Shown here piece after piece: positions 9,286 to 59,281 of a DNA stretch of 64,000 bases. Each line of letters begins with the position of its first letter. The first letter of the stretch is position 1. The DNA is from a virus (lineage: Duplodnaviria; Heunggongvirae; Uroviricota; Caudoviricetes): IMG/VR virus record IMGVR_UViG_2541047860_000002; one strand, written 5' to 3'. A program made the translations under genes and the position numbers. A model generated the notes under the pieces. It saw only the letters and a list, made by a program, of their open reading frames with translations. It was not told the origin of the DNA and ran no database searches.

Positions 9286-9531
9286 GTATTCCTCCGAAAA
9301 GCAGGTATCTGTTCATTTTCCAGAGGATAGGGAGTGTGTGATTTGCGATGGGGATTGAATGAAGATCTTTGCCGGTCGAGAAGCGATTATTGAGGGTGAT
9401 TTTTACACCTTAAGTGACGCTACTCACATATCCACAGAGTATTTTTATAAACCTTTTTCCATTTTTAATCCTTTTTAGATCCTTTTTAGGCGTCGCTGGA
9501 GCCAGTAGTGGCGCGGGCTGTAGAGGAGGCT

Positions 9532-9650
9532 GGTGTAAGATTTGCCCTCAATTAAATACGATCGGTGTAAGATTTGCCCTCAAAAGGTGTAAGATTTGCC
9601 CTCAAAAGGTGTAGTAATTGCCCTCAAAGTGATGTAAAAATTGCCCTCAC
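9532..9650 (+). repeat. Iteron array (oriV) upstream of repA: five direct 20-bp repeats
   Basis: GGTGTAAGATTTGCCCTCAA at 9532, 9564, 9586; GGTGTAGTAATTGCCCTCAA at 9608; GATGTAAAAATTGCCCTCAC at 9631; 22-23 bp phasing for the last four; DnaA-box-like ATATCCACA at ~9426. Confidence 0.8.
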
Positions 9651-18034: not shown

Positions 18035-18053
18035 ATTTTAGTTTTCTAACACA
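18035..18053 (+). promoter_or_regulatory. Dispersed operator-like motif (reverse orientation of ATGTTAGAAAACTAA)
   Basis: ATTTTAGTTTTCTAACACA 14 bp upstream of ORF 18067. Confidence 0.4.
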
Positions 18054-18066
18054 AATCATTAGAGTT

Positions 18067-27029: not shown

Positions 27030-27935
27030 TTAACGTTCTGCTTCACCACCAACGGCCTCCACCAGCGAAGTGAACATCGCTGATAATTCAGCAGTAAACA
27101 GGATAAAGTCAGCGTCAAATCGTTGAGCAACATCCTCTCGATCAATATCGTCGTTCTGGTCGTACAATTCGTCGCTGAACGACAAAGCCTTGATACTCAT
27201 ATCGTCATTCAGTCTGAAAAATGCACGGTCTTGCCAGTTAACCGCAACTGTGGTTGCAACCTTACCAGCTTCTATATGACTCATGATCTCGTCGGATAGC
27301 AGGTCCACTTTTTTGCAGCGGACCGCGCCGCCATCATCAAGCAATGCTTTTAAGGTCGCTTCCTCACCGGCACGGAAACCGTTCGGGAAGCCATTTTTAA
27401 TCCAGCCAGTGATGGTCAGTTCTAATGGGTCTTTCGGAGAGAAGGGGACAACGGGCAAGCTGCCAAGAGATTTCCGTAACAAAGCCAGCTGATCCTCTGC
27501 TTTTTTAGCACTGCTCGCCTCGACAAAAACCAGATGATTGCTTCGGTCTATCAGGATTTTAGCGACTGATTTTCTCGTGAAAGCACGAGGAAGAAGAGAG
27601 TGAAGCACTTCATCCTTCAGCGAATCTTTTTCGGTCTTCTTCAGCTTTCTGTCTTGTTCTTCTTCAAGTTTCAGGATTTTTTTCTGTAGCTCTTCTTTGA
27701 GCACTTGAGAAGGTAGGATTTTTTCCTCTCGTTTATGCTGTATCAGAAGAAAACCCTTGTATTCATGGGTGAGGTTGTCGCCAAGGACGGGGGTCCAACC
27801 AGCTTTAGCAATATCCTGAGAACCGCATGGGGTAAACACAAACTTGTTAAGGGCAGCATTTACTTCTGCGGTATCCCAGTTAACTTCGCGTGAAAGACGA
27901 TAGATGAAGATATTTTTGAAAGCGACTGATCTCAT
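27030..27935 (-). CDS. rdgC: Recombination-associated protein RdgC homologue
   Basis: [52 protein letters not shown] and [19 protein letters not shown] blocks match RdgC, divergent from host copy. Confidence 0.85.
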
Positions 27936-27946
27936 GTCTCACCATT

Positions 27947-27999
27947 TATGTTAGAAAATGCATGTTAATTATCTAACACAAATGGGTGCATTTTCTATC
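27947..27999. promoter_or_regulatory. Operator-like motif cluster upstream of rdgC operon
   Basis: TATGTTAGAAAATGC plus inverted TCTAACACAAA and TTTTCTA within 50 bp. Confidence 0.4.
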
Positions 28000-31346: not shown

Positions 31347-31649
31347 ATGACCAAAAAAATTAACATAAAGGATTTCAGGGATGCGTGGCTTGATGATTTT
31401 TTTGAATTTTCAACACCACATAGAAAGATACCTCCTGATATTCATATGACATTGTCACGGAAGTTGGACATTATCAATGCCGCAACTACCTGTAAGGATT
31501 TAAGATCACCACCAGGTAATCGGTATGAGGAACTGTCAGGGAAGCTAAATGGCTATTCATCAGTAAGGGTGAATAAGCAATATAGGTTAATTTTTAAGTG
31601 GGTTAACGGAAAGGCCGAGGACTTGTATCTCGACCCTCACAAATACTAA
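31347..31649 (+). CDS. higB: HigB-family toxin (RelE/ParE fold)
   Basis: KDFRDAWLDDFF..IPPDI..LSRKL..DLRSPPGNRYEELSGKLNGYSSVRVNKQYRLIF signature. Confidence 0.8.
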   Translation: MTKKINIKDFRDAWLDDFFEFSTPHRKIPPDIHMTLSRKLDIINAATTCKDLRSPPGNRYEELSGKLNGYSSVRVNKQYRLIFKWVNGKAEDLYLDPHKY

Positions 31650-31719
31650 AACAGATACCCGGTTACGGACCGGGTTCTGACCAGAGTCCACTTAATACGT
31701 ACGCTAGTAAGGGCAAAAA

Positions 31720-32058
31720 ATGAAACAGGCAACCAGAAAACCGACGACCGTAGGTGATATCCTGCTGTACGAATACCTGGAGCCGTTAGAGCTGAAGATC
31801 AACGAGTTAGCAGAAATACTTCATGTTCATCGTAACACCGTAAGTGCTCTTGTTAATAATAATCGTAAGCTAACGATGGATATGGCATATCGCCTGGCAA
31901 AAGCATTCGATACTTCTGTAGATTTTTGGATTAATCTTCAGACCGCAGTAGATCTGTGGGAAGTCGAAAATGATATGCGCGTTCAGGAAGAGTTAAGTCG
32001 TATCAATACTGCTGAAAAATTTATTTCTCAGCGGAACCTGAATAAAAAAGCAGCCTGA
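31720..32058 (+). CDS. higA: HigA-family HTH antitoxin (YbaQ-like)
   Basis: XRE-type HTH; closely resembles E. coli YbaQ as I recall it. Confidence 0.75.
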   Translation: MKQATRKPTTVGDILLYEYLEPLELKINELAEILHVHRNTVSALVNNNRKLTMDMAYRLAKAFDTSVDFWINLQTAVDLWEVENDMRVQEELSRINTAEKFISQRNLNKKAA

Positions 32059-33071: not shown

Positions 33072-33110
33072 AGCATAAACTACTAGGCTATGTGTGGTTT
33101 ATGCTTTTTT
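33072..33110. terminator. Hairpin plus T-run terminator
   Basis: AGCATAAAC...GTTTATGCT followed by TTTTTT. Confidence 0.5.
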
Positions 33111-34292
33111 CACGTACTCTATAAACATCTTCTCAGCCTGTTCTTGTGGCGTTCCAGCCATGACAAGCGCATCAATGAACGCCTGCTTCTTCAGTGCGAA
33201 CTGATCGGCAAGGCGTTGCTGAAGTTCCTTATTTTTCTGTTTCTCACGTTGCAAGGCCGCTTCTTTTGCAGCCGCCCGTTTTTTCTGTGCGTCTGACAAC
33301 TTTCTGGCCCTGGTCAATTGGTCACGTAGCTTGTCGATCTTGCCGTTGTCCTTTGCCAGTTTTGTACTTAAAGCTGCCTGGCGCTTCTGATAGAGCCTCC
33401 ATTCGCGTTTGGCGGCTTCAACGTTCGTTTTACTGCTACGATTGCGATTAAACTCCTTCTCGTCTTCTTTTGAGAAGTGTTTGGTTGTACGGCGGCGATC
33501 GTCACCAAATGCAATTTGCGTTGCAGCCTTTTGTAGCGCACGAGCAATACTCATTTGCCAACTGGCGGACTGTAACCGCGTCATTGAGTGGATCACGTGT
33601 TTACAGGCGACGCCTTGCAGCTTCGGGTTGCGAACTTTTGGATAGGCGTATTCTTTTGGCGGTGCCAGGGCAAAGTTACCCGCAGTGGCGATGTAACGAT
33701 ACCAGTATTGATGACGACCACAGTCACAATCGAAAGACACTCGCCCGGCGCACAGTGATTTAGTGATTTTGAGAGCTGATTTATCGTCTTCTGCGATGTC
33801 ATCAACCATCTGATCCCATTCTTCAAAGCGTATCCGGACGATATGGTGCTGGTGGACGGATATATCCGATGCTTCTACGCGGATATTAATCACATTGTGG
33901 CGAAGAGATACGGGTGTAGCTCTTTTGATACCAGATCCGTCATCCACGGCGTTATTTGCACGCTTAATATCGATTGCCTGGCTGGATGCCACCAGCTGGG
34001 CGTATGTGATGCCAGCCGTCTTGCTGTCATATTTTTCGCGCGTTTTACTCCGTAGCTTTTCGAAACCTTTCAGGTCGTCTCGCGTGAAGAACGTGCCGCC
34101 TTTTTTCTTCCCTAACTTGAGAATATCTTCGGCGGATTTGTTCCTCAGTCTACCTGGCGTCAGCGTCCGGTGAGCTTGTCGGCGCTTACGGGTTTGTTCT
34201 TTCCTGATAAGCTCGAATAAACGCGTGAAGTCCTTAGAGGACAGGCCGTCAGTGATATAGCGCCCGTCCTGGTTTTTCAGGAAATCAGGCAT
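33099..34292 (-). CDS. Hypothetical protein with Cys/His cluster and basic coiled-coil C-terminus
   Basis: 397-aa ORF; CDCGRHQYWYRY..CKHV motif. Confidence 0.4.
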   Translation of the reverse strand: MPDFLKNQDGRYITDGLSSKDFTRLFELIRKEQTRKRRQAHRTLTPGRLRNKSAEDILKLGKKKGGTFFTRDDLKGFEKLRSKTREKYDSKTAGITYAQLVASSQAIDIKRANNAVDDGSGIKRATPVSLRHNVINIRVEASDISVHQHHIVRIRFEEWDQMVDDIAEDDKSALKITKSLCAGRVSFDCDCGRHQYWYRYIATAGNFALAPPKEYAYPKVRNPKLQGVACKHVIHSMTRLQSASWQMSIARALQKAATQIAFGDDRRRTTKHFSKEDEKEFNRNRSSKTNVEAAKREWRLYQKRQAALSTKLAKDNGKIDKLRDQLTRARKLSDAQKKRAAAKEAALQREKQKNKELQQRLADQFALKKQAFIDALVMAGTPQEQAEKMFIEYVKKA

Positions 34293-34614
34293 TTTCTATC
34301 TCCGGTTCCGCGCTCGCGTAATCACGGATCTTGTTCCTCAGCCATGCCACATCAGGAAGAGTTAACGTGGTCCCGGCGGGCATTTCTTCCATTTCTGACT
34401 CATGGCCCACCAGCACCCGGAATACCCAGCGCAAATCTGCATTGCCATACGCCCGGTAGGCTGCAAGGTCTGAACGATATACTTCATCAATCTTTATCGT
34501 GTACTGGAAATTATCAGAGTGATACTCCGATACCCGCTTAATCATTTCCTGGTGAAACAGCGCACGAAAAATATCGTCTTCAATGTACCTATCGTCGAGT
34601 CTGCTATAGCCCAT
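34285..34614 (-). CDS. Hypothetical protein
   Basis: 109-aa ORF overlapping downstream gene start. Confidence 0.4.
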   Translation of the reverse strand: MGYSRLDDRYIEDDIFRALFHQEMIKRVSEYHSDNFQYTIKIDEVYRSDLAAYRAYGNADLRWVFRVLVGHESEMEEMPAGTTLTLPDVAWLRNKIRDYASAEPEIENA

Positions 34615-34807
34615 AACAAAGCCTCTCAGTCATAACCTGGGGGAAACTGTATGCAGGGTGTGAAATGCGAGAAACAGACAGGCCACCAGTTCAGGGGGAT
34701 GTGGCTCATAAATCCCCTCACTGGTGACAAGTGACTTTCATTAATCTTTATGCGGGGGCCAGCTTCATTTGCTGGCATTAGATTAAAAATTAAACGGAGT
34801 GAATGAC

Positions 34808-34942
34808 ATGGATGTTATCTTCGAATTATTAATTCTAATTGATCTGTTTATGAACGCTTCATTGACCACTCAAATACTCGCGTCAATATTTTTGTTACTC
34901 TTCTACCTGGTGTTGAGGGAGTTAACAAAGCTACTAATGTGA
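34808..34942 (+). CDS. Small hydrophobic peptide (44 aa), possible type I toxin-like or membrane peptide
   Basis: GGAG 8 nt upstream of ATG; MDVIFELLILIDLFMNASLTTQILASIFLLLFYLVLRELTKLLM; below 60-aa ORF cut-off. Confidence 0.3.
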   Translation: MDVIFELLILIDLFMNASLTTQILASIFLLLFYLVLRELTKLLM

Positions 34943-35596
34943 TCAAAGTATCACGGTATCTTCATCAACTTCTTTCCCAGCCAGTGACTTTGGCTGGGAG
35001 GTGCCTGCTTTAACTTTTTCATGCCCAATAATGGAAAGGAACGAAGCGAGTATGCCTGTTTTTTGCTCTTTCTCGACTGTACCGGTCATCTGCTCTACGT
35101 AATCCGCACTGGCAACGTTGTGGTATACGGTCGCGTAGCAACACAGGATCATCAGAATATGCTCCGGCCTGATATCCTGCCAGTTCACCCTGTAGACTTC
35201 TTCTCCGTTACCGTTGTATTCGGTATCAACGATAGAGTCGGGGATTTCGAAAGCACCTTTGTTATTTTGCGGCAGGGATAATAGTTTCTGGAGTTTTAAC
35301 TCTTTGTATCTTTCCATCCCGACGATGATTGCTGCTCTACCATCGGCATGACGGGTCTTGAGAGTCACCTGGCTTGCTCCGGTGCCAGCGGAGATCGTTG
35401 GCGTAATTTCGTCTACCAGTACCTTAAATTTGCTTTTCCGCAGGGCTGCTATAGCTGGAGGAATTTTTTGCTTTTGCTCCAATGCTGACGCGGGAAGGGG
35501 TTTTACTTCGTTAATAATGAGAGCACCGTCTTTCAGTATTGCAGTGAGCATTTGAGGCTTGCTGGTGGTCAGGCTGAATATTGCGATCTTTTCCAT
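34943..35596 (-). CDS. Hypothetical protein
   Basis: ORF track start trimmed to MEKIAIF with GGAGG RBS. Confidence 0.4.
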   Translation of the reverse strand: MEKIAIFSLTTSKPQMLTAILKDGALIINEVKPLPASALEQKQKIPPAIAALRKSKFKVLVDEITPTISAGTGASQVTLKTRHADGRAAIIVGMERYKELKLQKLLSLPQNNKGAFEIPDSIVDTEYNGNGEEVYRVNWQDIRPEHILMILCCYATVYHNVASADYVEQMTGTVEKEQKTGILASFLSIIGHEKVKAGTSQPKSLAGKEVDEDTVIL

Positions 35597-35938
35597 TGTC
35601 CTTCCTCCACGGATGACGGATACAAAAAAAGGCCGCACATGGCGGCCTGCTTTGGCGTTATGACTCCCTACCGCGCTTCGGCTGAAAGTTAATCGTCAAA
35701 AGAACCTTCAACGGGAGCCGTTAGCGCGATGGATTATGTGCAGTTTGTGATTTCCAAAATAGTGTCAACCACTTTTTGTGGATTTTATTTTTTGACAGAA
35801 ATTTGGCCTAAATCATGTTGATTTGGCTGATTATTTTTATAACATAAAAGTCATTTTGATTGCATGAAGGACGGTGCAGTGAAGTTAAGGGTTTTAGGGA
35901 CCGCGCTCGCGGCTAAGATGGTAAGGTATGGAGTTAAT

Positions 35939-57528: not shown

Positions 57529-58892
57529 TAATCATCCTCCGGCGGTTCTATCGCGATATCATCATCTCCGGCGTCATACCCTGCATCAGATGCATCATAA
57601 TCACCGTAAATTTCAGCCGTTGCCGAAGGGTCAATATCCAGCTCTTCGTCGTTGGCCTCGAATTCTCCAGCTTTACGCTCGCCATTGCGGTCGTAATCTC
57701 CGCACCCCAATTCTTCAACAATGGTTGCCACATCCGCCCGGCGCTCTGCCAGCCATTGCGGATGGTTAGCCTGAAGCGTTGCAAACTCCCTTGCCTCTTT
57801 GTCCAGCTGTTCATCATCAACATCATTGACGTCAGAAACAGGTGGTTCGAGAAGAGTGATAGCTTTCGCCGCGCGCGCCGCGAGGATAGCCGGGACGCTG
57901 ACCCCCTGGCGCTCGATGTATTCAGCAACACCGATATCATCCAGTTCCTCGCGCTCACGCATACGTATAGCGGCGGCGATAACTCTGGCAGCGCGTGCGT
58001 CAGCGCCAATGCGATATTCAATCTCTTTGCCACGCTGTTCGGCCTGTAGGCGTGCTAATTCGAGTTTTTCTCTGGCCTCAGCCTCTTTGAATGCTTGCTG
58101 GCGAGCGCTCTGACGAAGCTTTTCATCCCCCTGTCGCAGCTTTTGTTCGGACTGATATATAGCTGCCAACCTACTGATAAAATCATTCATGTAGTAGGCC
58201 GCGTCACTGATTAGACCGAGAAGGCGCTGCCCAGGGTGCATTCCTTCTGGCTCTTTATCGCCCAAGGCGTCTATTTCCGCCTGTAGACGTTCGGCCTCCT
58301 GATCAACAATGCTTTGATACTGAAGTGCGCGCTCTTGCGCCATTTGAATTGCTAACCGCAGGTGTTCTTCTGCGCCGTTCTTCATCATGTCGCGAGCCAC
58401 ATTCGTAGTGGGCAATGTGGCACGTTGCACAGCACCGCCAGGGATCATTGCTGAAGATCCCTCAATTTTTGGGGCGCTTTTATCTTCTTCGGGGATCATT
58501 TTCGCCATTTTTTCGCGCAATGATCTCCTGACAGATTCTTTTATCTCATTGTTATTATTTGCATTATTTTCATGATCCGAAGTTTTCTTTCTCGGCATAC
58601 TTCGGAAAGAACCTGCGCCCTGCGAATTGTCAATTTCTGTAAATTTTGTTTTTTCTGCACCCTCTTCCAGCTTTTTTGTTGCTCTTCCCGCCCGTTTTTT
58701 TTCAGGTGATTTGGTGCTTTTTTTTGTTGTCTTTACCTGCGACCGCACCTCATTTTTTTTCATATTGAGATGCTTTCTGGCTGTATTGAAGCTAAGGCCA
58801 TGCTCCTCACAGTATTCCTTTACAGTGATCCCTTTTTCTTCACGCAACGCTATAAAGCGGGCGCGGTGCTCCTCCCAATTAACCAGACTCAT
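57528..58892 (-). CDS. pacA: Terminase small / pac-recognition subunit (PacA-like)
   Basis: 454-aa protein with N-terminal HTH-like region and very acidic C-terminus; contains GATC cluster. Confidence 0.6.
   Translation of the reverse strand: MSLVNWEEHRARFIALREEKGITVKEYCEEHGLSFNTARKHLNMKKNEVRSQVKTTKKSTKSPEKKRAGRATKKLEEGAEKTKFTEIDNSQGAGSFRSMPRKKTSDHENNANNNNEIKESVRRSLREKMAKMIPEEDKSAPKIEGSSAMIPGGAVQRATLPTTNVARDMMKNGAEEHLRLAIQMAQERALQYQSIVDQEAERLQAEIDALGDKEPEGMHPGQRLLGLISDAAYYMNDFISRLAAIYQSEQKLRQGDEKLRQSARQQAFKEAEAREKLELARLQAEQRGKEIEYRIGADARAARVIAAAIRMREREELDDIGVAEYIERQGVSVPAILAARAAKAITLLEPPVSDVNDVDDEQLDKEAREFATLQANHPQWLAERRADVATIVEELGCGDYDRNGERKAGEFEANDEELDIDPSATAEIYGDYDASDAGYDAGDDDIAIEPPEDD
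58443..58577. other. Candidate pac site: cluster of five GATC (Dam) sites inside pacA
   Basis: GATC at 58443, 58456, 58494, 58522, 58574, three as ATGATCC elements; ~10x over expectation. Confidence 0.35.
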
Positions 58893-59281
58893 AAAGCAAC
58901 ACCACGCTTTTTAACGGCGGCATTCCACAGCTTATTCGCCATGTCCACCAGCTCTCGTTGCTCTTTTCGCGCCTGTTCGACTGATTTCCTGCTACAGTTT
59001 TTAACCAGTAAGCTACCGTATTCAGGCGTGCGCCCGCGCACCTTGAACTGATATCCGTTCAGACCATGTAGCCAGTATTTTCGTGGATACACACGATCAT
59101 CCAGCTCACAGATTGCCCTGCTTGAACGAACAAAATGACGAATGATGTTAGTTACACTTACTCGTGAAACATGGAGATGAGGGTATTTTTCTTTGGCGAG
59201 AGTGGTAATTTCAGTGACTGTCAGATAGCAGTCAGCCCTGATCATGATATCCGCAATTTCTGCGCTGCTGATTTGTTCCAT
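58889..59281 (-). CDS. Hypothetical protein upstream of pacA (late-activator position)
   Basis: 130-aa ORF overlapping pacA start. Confidence 0.35.
   Translation of the reverse strand: MEQISSAEIADIMIRADCYLTVTEITTLAKEKYPHLHVSRVSVTNIIRHFVRSSRAICELDDRVYPRKYWLHGLNGYQFKVRGRTPEYGSLLVKNCSRKSVEQARKEQRELVDMANKLWNAAVKKRGVAL

Follow-up and report, generated by a model that had tools for sequence, protein, structure and literature searches.

A conserved 44-codon gene behind a P1-type late-promoter match at the mat/gene 26 junction of D6-like phage-plasmids

RESULTS

A small gene lies in an insertion between mat and gene 26

The stretch of DNA analyzed here, 64 kb in length and hereafter called the window, is a D6-like phage-plasmid of the P1 family. 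The region of interest shares 99% identity with Escherichia phage D6, which is a plasmid prophage of the P1 family. Of 5426 complete E. coli genomes, 100 had a plasmid match; chromosomes were never matched. The locus contains the following features, in window coordinates:

33099-34292, minus strand: gene 25-like baseplate/tail gene, next to the gene 26-like gene
34285-34614, minus strand: gene 26-like baseplate wedge gene, flanking the insertion
34615-34942: insertion of 328 bp between mat and gene 26, at an accessory-gene hotspot
34683-34726: large imperfect hairpin CCACCAGT..ACTGGTG, enclosing GGGGAT (34695-34700) and ATCCCC (34712-34717)
34727-34747, plus strand: consensus match to a P1-class (Lpa-type) late promoter, ACAAGTGACTT-tcat-TAATCT
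34758-34776, plus strand: 5'-proximal stem-loop GCCAGC/GCTGGC (arms 34758-34763 and 34771-34776), at the start of the predicted transcript
34796-34799, plus strand: Shine-Dalgarno sequence GGAG, 8 nt before the ATG at 34808
34808-34942, plus strand: 44-aa coding sequence, orf77 of D6, with its TGA stop codon at 34940-34942
34943-35596, minus strand: mat (maturation control), flanking the small ORF

The stop codons of mat and orf77 abut to form TGATCA; orf77 is convergent with mat, the whole mat-26-25 late operon being encoded on the other strand. In the Citrobacter and Klebsiella relatives (L020 and L021), which have a Mat of 53% identity, a 4-nt overlap joins mat to gene 26, and the 328 bp at 34615-34942 are therefore regarded as an insertion in the D6 lineage. 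The junction is a hotspot for accessory genes. In three relatives, a RelE/HigA module (L011 213-784, L012 255-826, and L013 1192-1763) takes the place of 34675-34726, and the sequence from 34727 onward is kept; the module is located between gene 26 and the orf77 promoter, and the large hairpin is gone. Nearly all D6-like plasmids carry the cassette (119 matching records vs 116 records with Mat at 80% or above). A contig scan with Mat yielded only one further locus, and an orf77 homologue on a 642-kb contig was also found in the mat/gene 26 setting.

Another moron island is present in the window at 31347-32058 on the plus strand. Here the tail operon of the minus strand is broken between genes 25 and 7 by a RelE/HigA-like toxin-antitoxin pair, together with a second HTH gene and an ORF of 242 aa that has hydrophobic segments.

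orf77 is a selected gene overlooked in plasmid records

The translation of orf77 is MDVIFELLILIDLFMNASLTTQILASIFLLLFYLVLRELTKLLM. The first-pass annotation of this DNA had reported an unannotated ORF of 44 codons starting at 34808 with GGAG 8 nt upstream. The start, the ribosome-binding sequence, and the length were all found as described. The word "unannotated" applies to the PGAP-annotated plasmid records, which leave the interval empty, but not to the record of phage D6, in which orf77 is listed as a hypothetical protein of 44 aa (YP_009914754).

The ORF is kept in related genomes, conservation in relatives being one of the checks suggested in that annotation. Among nine clean relatives, 27 columns of orf77 were variable, with 3, 5, and 19 of them on codon positions 1, 2, and 3, respectively (binomial p = 9e-5), and the pairwise dN/dS (NG86) was 0.08-0.38. 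The second allele class (L012 and L013), MNIFNKLIDLLNKFISASLTQQVSTSVFLLLFYLVLRELTKLLM, is also exactly 44 aa long. Its DNA is nearly unalignable in the 5' half, whereas the reading frame, length, and amphipathic pattern are kept; polar positions 2, 5/6, 9, 12/13, and 16 are retained, resulting in a stronger amphipathic N-helix. The net charge of the peptide differs between alleles, and the 3' half of orf77 is highly conserved at the DNA level. orf77 is a genuine, selected, and conserved gene rather than a chance reading frame.

Homologues of the two alleles form 29 and 17 clusters, respectively, all in D6-like contexts of E. coli, Salmonella, or Shigella, and a profile search of 1.84 billion representatives revealed no homologue beyond the D6-like family. 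No match was obtained in Pfam, NCBIfam, or PADLOC even at E <= 10. In PHROGs, the peptide matched only phrog_38362, of unknown function, and carried no lysis annotation.

In L007 (NZ_CP091837.1), a plasmid of 76 kb that is additionally typed as IncFIA and is maybe a decaying prophage, codon 30 of orf77 has changed from TTA to TAA, which generates a premature stop; orf77 is therefore dispensable for plasmid maintenance.

The peptide is predicted to form two helices

The peptide had initially been described as essentially a single TM helix. This was not borne out, since AlphaFold on the family alignment gave two helices, at residues 3-16 and 19-43, with a mean pLDDT of 94. The model predicts a helix-break-helix peptide in which the N-helix is amphipathic and the C-helix hydrophobic. 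The two would be separated by a short polar break (xSL), and the hydrophobic C-helix would insert in the inner membrane. A membrane-acting, possibly toxic peptide is plausible. The peptide does not fit a holin or pinholin, for which at least one transmembrane domain, a highly charged C-terminal tail, and linkage of the gene to an endolysin or lysis cassette would be expected: it has one hydrophobic helix, but its tail is only RELTKLLM. The lysis genes of D6 are distant from orf77, with lydA/lydB at 30.7-31.5 kb and the lysozyme gene at 19.3 kb of D6.

The predicted leader is short

The first-pass annotation had treated the 150 bp before the ORF as one structured leader with the hairpins GGGGAT..ATCCCC and GCCAGC..GCTGGC. 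Both hairpins are present, at 34695-34717 and 34758-34776, but they do not belong to one leader. If the promoter at 34727-34747 is used, the leader would be about 53 nt long and would include the GCCAGC hairpin. The core of this stem-loop, CCAGC/GCTGG, is present in every allele, and L012 and L013 extend the stem by different pairs (CCAGCTC/GAGCTGG). In the minimum-free-energy fold, the Shine-Dalgarno sequence pairs with codons 4-5 in a local hairpin, the whole 77-nt fold having a weak z of -2.0; the Shine-Dalgarno-pairing hairpin differs in other alleles.

The large hairpin at 34683-34726 has a folding energy of -22 to -23 kcal/mol, whichever strand is considered. L006 lacks the loop, and the whole segment is replaced in L011-L013. 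Because it is upstream of the promoter and is replaced by RelE/HigA while the ORF is kept, the hairpin is dispensable and not part of the orf77 leader. An ORF of 27 aa annotated in D6, orf76 (window 34651-34734, plus strand), coincides in part with the large hairpin. L006 has lost a portion of orf76, the relatives with the toxin-antitoxin module have it replaced, and it is probably not a gene.

No terminator was found downstream of orf77. The hairpin at 34976-34998 was considered for this role and rejected, as it is inconsistently kept in relatives and has no adjacent U-tract.

The locus does not look like a type I toxin-antitoxin system

On the basis of size, hydrophobicity, and leader structure, the peptide had been likened to hok/ldr-type toxins. 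At E <= 10, it matched none of the type I toxin families (Hok/Gef, Ldr, TisB, Ibs, and ShoB) in Pfam, NCBIfam, or PADLOC. No Rfam sRNA was found at the locus, where the only hit was a sub-threshold snoRNA match attributable to chance. A search for an antisense promoter and small RNA on the opposite strand had been suggested as one check of the proposal. The only antisense sigma-70-like site, at 34854-34825, has 9 of 12 matches and is within chance expectation (two sites found vs 1.7 expected); its hexamers are not kept in other alleles, and no terminator-like site for an antisense sRNA gene was found. With regard to a long structured 5' UTR or a leader ORF, the predicted leader of about 53 nt has one 6-bp 5' hairpin and the modest Shine-Dalgarno hairpin. 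The predicted sense promoter, which has a -10 and an activator box but no -35, is not of the constitutive kind. In its testable defining features, the locus does not look like type I toxin-antitoxin. Thus, a selected small hydrophobic peptide stands from the original proposal and its toxic action on the membrane is possible, whereas the toxin-antitoxin architecture (family, sRNA, leader, and promoter) does not.

A P1-type late-promoter match precedes orf77

P1-class late promoters consist of a 9-bp AAGTnACTT inverted repeat centred near -22, a 4-nt spacer, and a TAnnnT -10 element, without a -35 element; they act late and depend on Lpa and the host protein SspA. From the nine annotated Lpa-dependent promoters of P1, we derived the consensus (A)CAAGTGACTT-N4-TAnAAT; all nine have the 9-nt box, the 4-nt spacer, and the 6-nt -10. 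In the window, the inverted-repeat box AAGTGACTT is exact at 34729-34737 and is preceded by AC, as in seven of the nine P1 sites. The -10 element TAATCT (34742-34747) follows after a 4-nt spacer, tcat, as in P1 late promoters. The start of the box and the end of the -10 are 79 and 61 nt from the orf77 ATG, respectively. No -35-like hexamer was found 16-18 nt upstream of TAATCT, and a sigma-70 scan found nothing there.

With the P1 matrix, the site scored 18.9-19.7 bits. This was the top score both in the window (64 kb) and in the remaining 27 kb of D6, the next-best P1-type site across the two reaching 13 bits; P1's own sites score 12-26 bits. The matrix also recovered two P1 sites on which it had not been trained, upstream of genes 23 and 7, and the window site is identical to the gene 23 site (LP23) at 18 of 21 positions. 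The strict late-promoter pattern occurred in 12 of 2000 random 64-kb sequences (0.6%). The promoter call itself comes from a consensus match noticed after the fact. With the first matrix, the excess was only slight, the site scoring 17.6 vs 17.1 for the best of 30 shuffles. The best P1-type site on the minus strand of the interval scored 2.5 bits.

The 22-nt promoter element is invariant in 10 aligned relatives, except for one -10 base in L013, and is the most conserved part of the cassette. Around it, the upstream flank is non-homologous between locus types and the downstream leader has diverged. In the module-carrying relatives, a TTGACT precedes the -10 by 19 nt, and from this spacing some sigma-70 activity would be possible in their lysogens. 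We infer from the consensus match that 34727-34747 would be active as a promoter, possibly with a P1-type Lpa as its activator.

Several other sites were examined. The box is not the counterpart of the divergent LP26/LPpmgL pair of P1: mat and gene 26 originally overlapped, as in relatives, there is no minus-strand -10 by the box, and PmgL is unrelated. Three further P1-type candidates were rejected, the one at 18061 being part of a repeated operator-like 19-mer and those at 35856 and 2917 being weak. The intergenic 13-mers are not repeated elsewhere in the window.

Late operons of D6 carry a different motif

A second motif, AAATCACA(A/C/T)(A/T)(C/G)T-N3-(-10-like hexamer), was found 50-125 nt upstream of late operons; written as AAATCACAnnCT-N3-(-10), it stands before nine D6-like late operons. 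Its sites are as follows:

1968-1948, 9344-9324, 17978-17958, and 31246-31226, minus strand of the window: D6-type motif
35753-35733, minus strand of the window: D6-type motif AAATCACAAACT-gca-CATAAT upstream of mat, read as the late promoter of mat
10974, minus strand of the window: box only
10216 (plus), 16242 (minus), and 18748 (minus) of L022: D6-type motif
34646-34666, minus strand of the window: weak D6-type-like site ATTTCACACCCT-gca-TACAGT, 52 nt upstream of gene 26

In the window, the motif precedes mat, the tail-fibre R gene, the sit operon, gene 7, and a 565-aa ORF that is possibly capsid-like; in the rest of D6, it precedes the lysozyme, prt, and ddrB genes. The sequence AAATCACANNNT occurs six times compared with 0.97 expected, always on the late-gene strand (6/6), and none of 100 shuffles reached six. 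Five of these six sites, together with three in the rest of D6, lie 50-125 nt before late operons and are followed by 3 nt and a -10-like hexamer. All nine D6-type sites retain AAATCACA and the 3-nt spacer, and no P1-type site was found before any D6 late operon. The site at 34646-34666, in a segment retained in all relatives, is uncertain, as it scores 10.4-11.2 bits, within the range of shuffles. Before mat, the sequence in the Citrobacter and Klebsiella relatives is AAAAACACAAAGT-aca-AACCGC. An unbiased search for enriched 9-mers in intergenic DNA was dominated by AT-rich noise.

The two motif classes are distinct, and both recur. Judging from its position upstream of late operons, the D6-type motif is read as the late promoter of the D6-like operons themselves and is probably the late-promoter box of the D6 family, distinct from the P1 box. 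Each phage, D6-like or P1, has one Lpa homologue; the only one in the window (58889-59281, minus strand) is 31% identical to P1 Lpa.

Two further repeat families were observed. A 19-mer like TGTGTTAGAAAACTAAAAT is repeated at least eight times in intergenic regions, several copies forming inverted pairs. The copies in the window are at 18053 (minus), 27980 (minus), 39600 (plus), 40270 (minus), 43446 (minus), 53515 (plus), 54925 (plus), and 59358 (plus), with weaker partners 33 nt away at 27947, 40237, 43413, and 59391. One copy is upstream of the Lpa homologue and another is beside a ref-like gene. These 19-mers are probably C1 repressor operators of the D6-like prophage; the orf77 region has no copy (best score 4 bits vs 23-29 bits for the repeated copies). 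At about 9400-9600 on the minus strand of the window, a sequence of about 20 bp, TTGAGGGCAAATCTTACACC or a variant of it, occurs five times as direct repeats at a spacing of about 22-34 bp. The repeats are iteron-like, which would suggest a replication origin or an incompatibility element.

P1 lydC presents a mirror image

When the D6-type matrix was applied to a complete P1 genome, one outstanding match of 20.0 bits was obtained, compared with 13.0 bits for the next and 18.7 bits for the best of 25 shuffles:

NC_005856 31591-31571, minus strand: D6-type site GGAAATCACAAAGT-aca-TACCGT, 38 nt before the start of lydC

The same site is found before lydC at 26592-26572 of L017 and at 27030 of OP279344. 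P1 LydC is a holin-like membrane protein of 93 aa that is expressed monocistronically and is lethal when cloned, and lydC has been described with a putative early promoter only (PMC9025707). Like orf77, lydC encodes a small membrane protein in a stand-alone cassette by late genes, and upstream of it is the single site in its genome that resembles the other family's type of late promoter. In contrast, LydC has no sequence similarity to the orf77 peptide, is twice as long, and has two predicted transmembrane helices.

This reciprocity between P1 and D6 may reflect cross-activation between the phage families, or it may be no more than a trace of horizontal transfer, each cassette having retained the promoter it came with. 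A bolder idea is that P1-like and D6-like phage-plasmids each keep one small membrane-protein gene behind the rival's promoter type. When a rival enters late development, its Lpa would turn on the resident effector, and the resulting early membrane damage or lysis would abort the rival's burst. This would be a transcriptional "booby trap" for inter-phage exclusion, with the promoter itself as the sensor. We offer it as a speculation that is rather unlikely to be correct.

DISCUSSION

Interpretation of the orf77 locus

The reading that best fits these observations, although we are evenly divided on whether it is right, is that orf77 is an accessory (moron) gene encoding an activator-dependent membrane effector of the lytic phase, with a P1-type Lpa as the best-fitting activator. 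The coding status of orf77, its presence in an insertion, and the match and conservation of the promoter element are observed directly. The remaining steps are a proposal. orf77 would be silent unless an Lpa-type late activator is present, because its sole credible promoter has a -10 but no -35 and carries the P1 inverted repeat at the canonical spacing. From a start near 34754, a short mRNA would be produced that is stabilized by the 5' stem-loop and in which the Shine-Dalgarno sequence would be accessible or weakly occluded. The peptide would then be made during lytic development and act on the membrane, affecting, for example, lysis timing, permeabilization, or exclusion; any such physiological effect is put forward here as a prediction. 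The activator would be the P1-type Lpa of a co-resident or superinfecting P1-like phage. This protein fits best because the late operons of D6-like phages carry the other motif and the D6-like Lpa is only distantly related to that of P1, although the D6 Lpa might recognize both boxes.

If it does, orf77 could be an ordinary late gene of D6 whose P1-type box is tolerated by the D6 Lpa, and the peptide could be an accessory of lysis or assembly, such as a modulator of LydA/LydB/lysozyme. The promoter is built like those of the P1-family late class, an AA(G/A)T(C/G)AC core is common to both boxes if the opposite strand of the palindrome is taken, and the cassette is nearly universal in D6-like plasmids. 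However, the constancy of AAATCACA and the 3-nt spacer at all nine D6-type sites and the lack of P1-type sites before D6 late operons argue against this, as do the distance from the D6 lysis genes and the convergence with mat, which places orf77 antisense to any read-through from mat to gene 26. We regard it as rather unlikely.

Quite improbable, in our view, is that orf77 is a moron expressed in lysogeny from a sigma-70 promoter, serving superinfection exclusion or host modulation, and that its likeness to a P1 promoter is coincidental. An opposite-strand position within a late operon is typical of morons, and the TTGACT-to-(-10) layout of the module-carrying relatives is that of the annotated sigma-70 promoter Pmat of P1. 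Against this, neither the window nor most relatives have a -35-like hexamer and the sigma-70 scan is empty there; moreover, so strict a pattern is expected in few windows, and the element is the best conserved of the cassette.

In a type I toxin-antitoxin system, a constitutive toxin mRNA would be held in check by a cis-antisense sRNA, thereby stabilizing the plasmid. The small, hydrophobic, conserved peptide is in line with this, as are the local hairpin that can pair with the Shine-Dalgarno sequence, the insertion of RelE/HigA at this site in relatives, which makes it a toxin-antitoxin hotspot, and the antisense orientation of mat read-through to orf77. Nevertheless, we consider this very unlikely: neither a toxin family nor an Rfam antitoxin RNA was matched, there is no conserved antisense promoter and no terminator, the sense promoter lacks a -35 and has an activator box, the leader is short, and L011-L013 carry orf77 together with a type II toxin-antitoxin module. 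It is scarcely credible that the peptide is incidental and that the DNA is there chiefly for the mat-26 operon, to terminate, process, or regulate its transcript by antisense. Hairpins on both strands and the strong DNA-level conservation of the 3' half of orf77 are in line with such a role. Against it, the third-position bias and the low dN/dS demonstrate that the protein is under selection, the diverged allele keeps frame, length, and amphipathic pattern in almost unalignable DNA, and relatives that lack the insertion and have overlapping mat and gene 26 do well.

Significance of the activator-dependent reading

The orf77 product is a selected small protein that standard annotation has overlooked in about 100 plasmids of clinical and veterinary E. 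coli, Salmonella, and Shigella. Distinct late-promoter boxes appear to be used by two related phage-plasmid families, and each genome has exactly one strong site of the other family's type, located before a small membrane protein. Phage-plasmids are major vehicles of resistance genes. If these sites are functional, they would provide a simple mechanism by which such elements compete or engage in cross-talk when resident in the same cell, and would give a function to the puzzling separate expression of P1 lydC. If they are not functional, the locus would be an ordinary orphan moron.

Comparison with known systems

The type I toxins of Hok/Sok, Ldr/Rdl, TisB/IstR, Ibs/Sib, and ShoB/OhsC resemble the orf77 peptide in being shorter than 60 aa, in having a hydrophobic helix, and in being carried on a plasmid, and a membrane-damaging action is plausible for orf77 as well. 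Unlike them, orf77 has no family match, antisense sRNA gene, long folded leader, or leader ORF; its promoter is predicted to be activator-dependent, and its peptide has an additional amphipathic N-helix.

The Lpa (gp10)-dependent promoters of P1, such as LPmat and LP23, share with the window site the three elements, their spacing, the AC before the box, and the absence of a -35. The window site differs in that it belongs to a D6-like genome whose late operons carry another motif, precedes an orphan ORF of 44 aa instead of a structural operon, and has an activation that is predicted.

The late promoters of satellite P4 are activated by Ogr of P2, so that the activator of an incoming phage trans-activates a resident element. 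In the case of orf77, the responder would be a full phage-plasmid instead of a satellite and the product a 44-aa membrane peptide, and the arrangement is predicted from sequence. Like phage morons and the P4 genes answering P2 Ogr, orf77 is an independently promoted accessory gene in a late operon that could answer a foreign activator.
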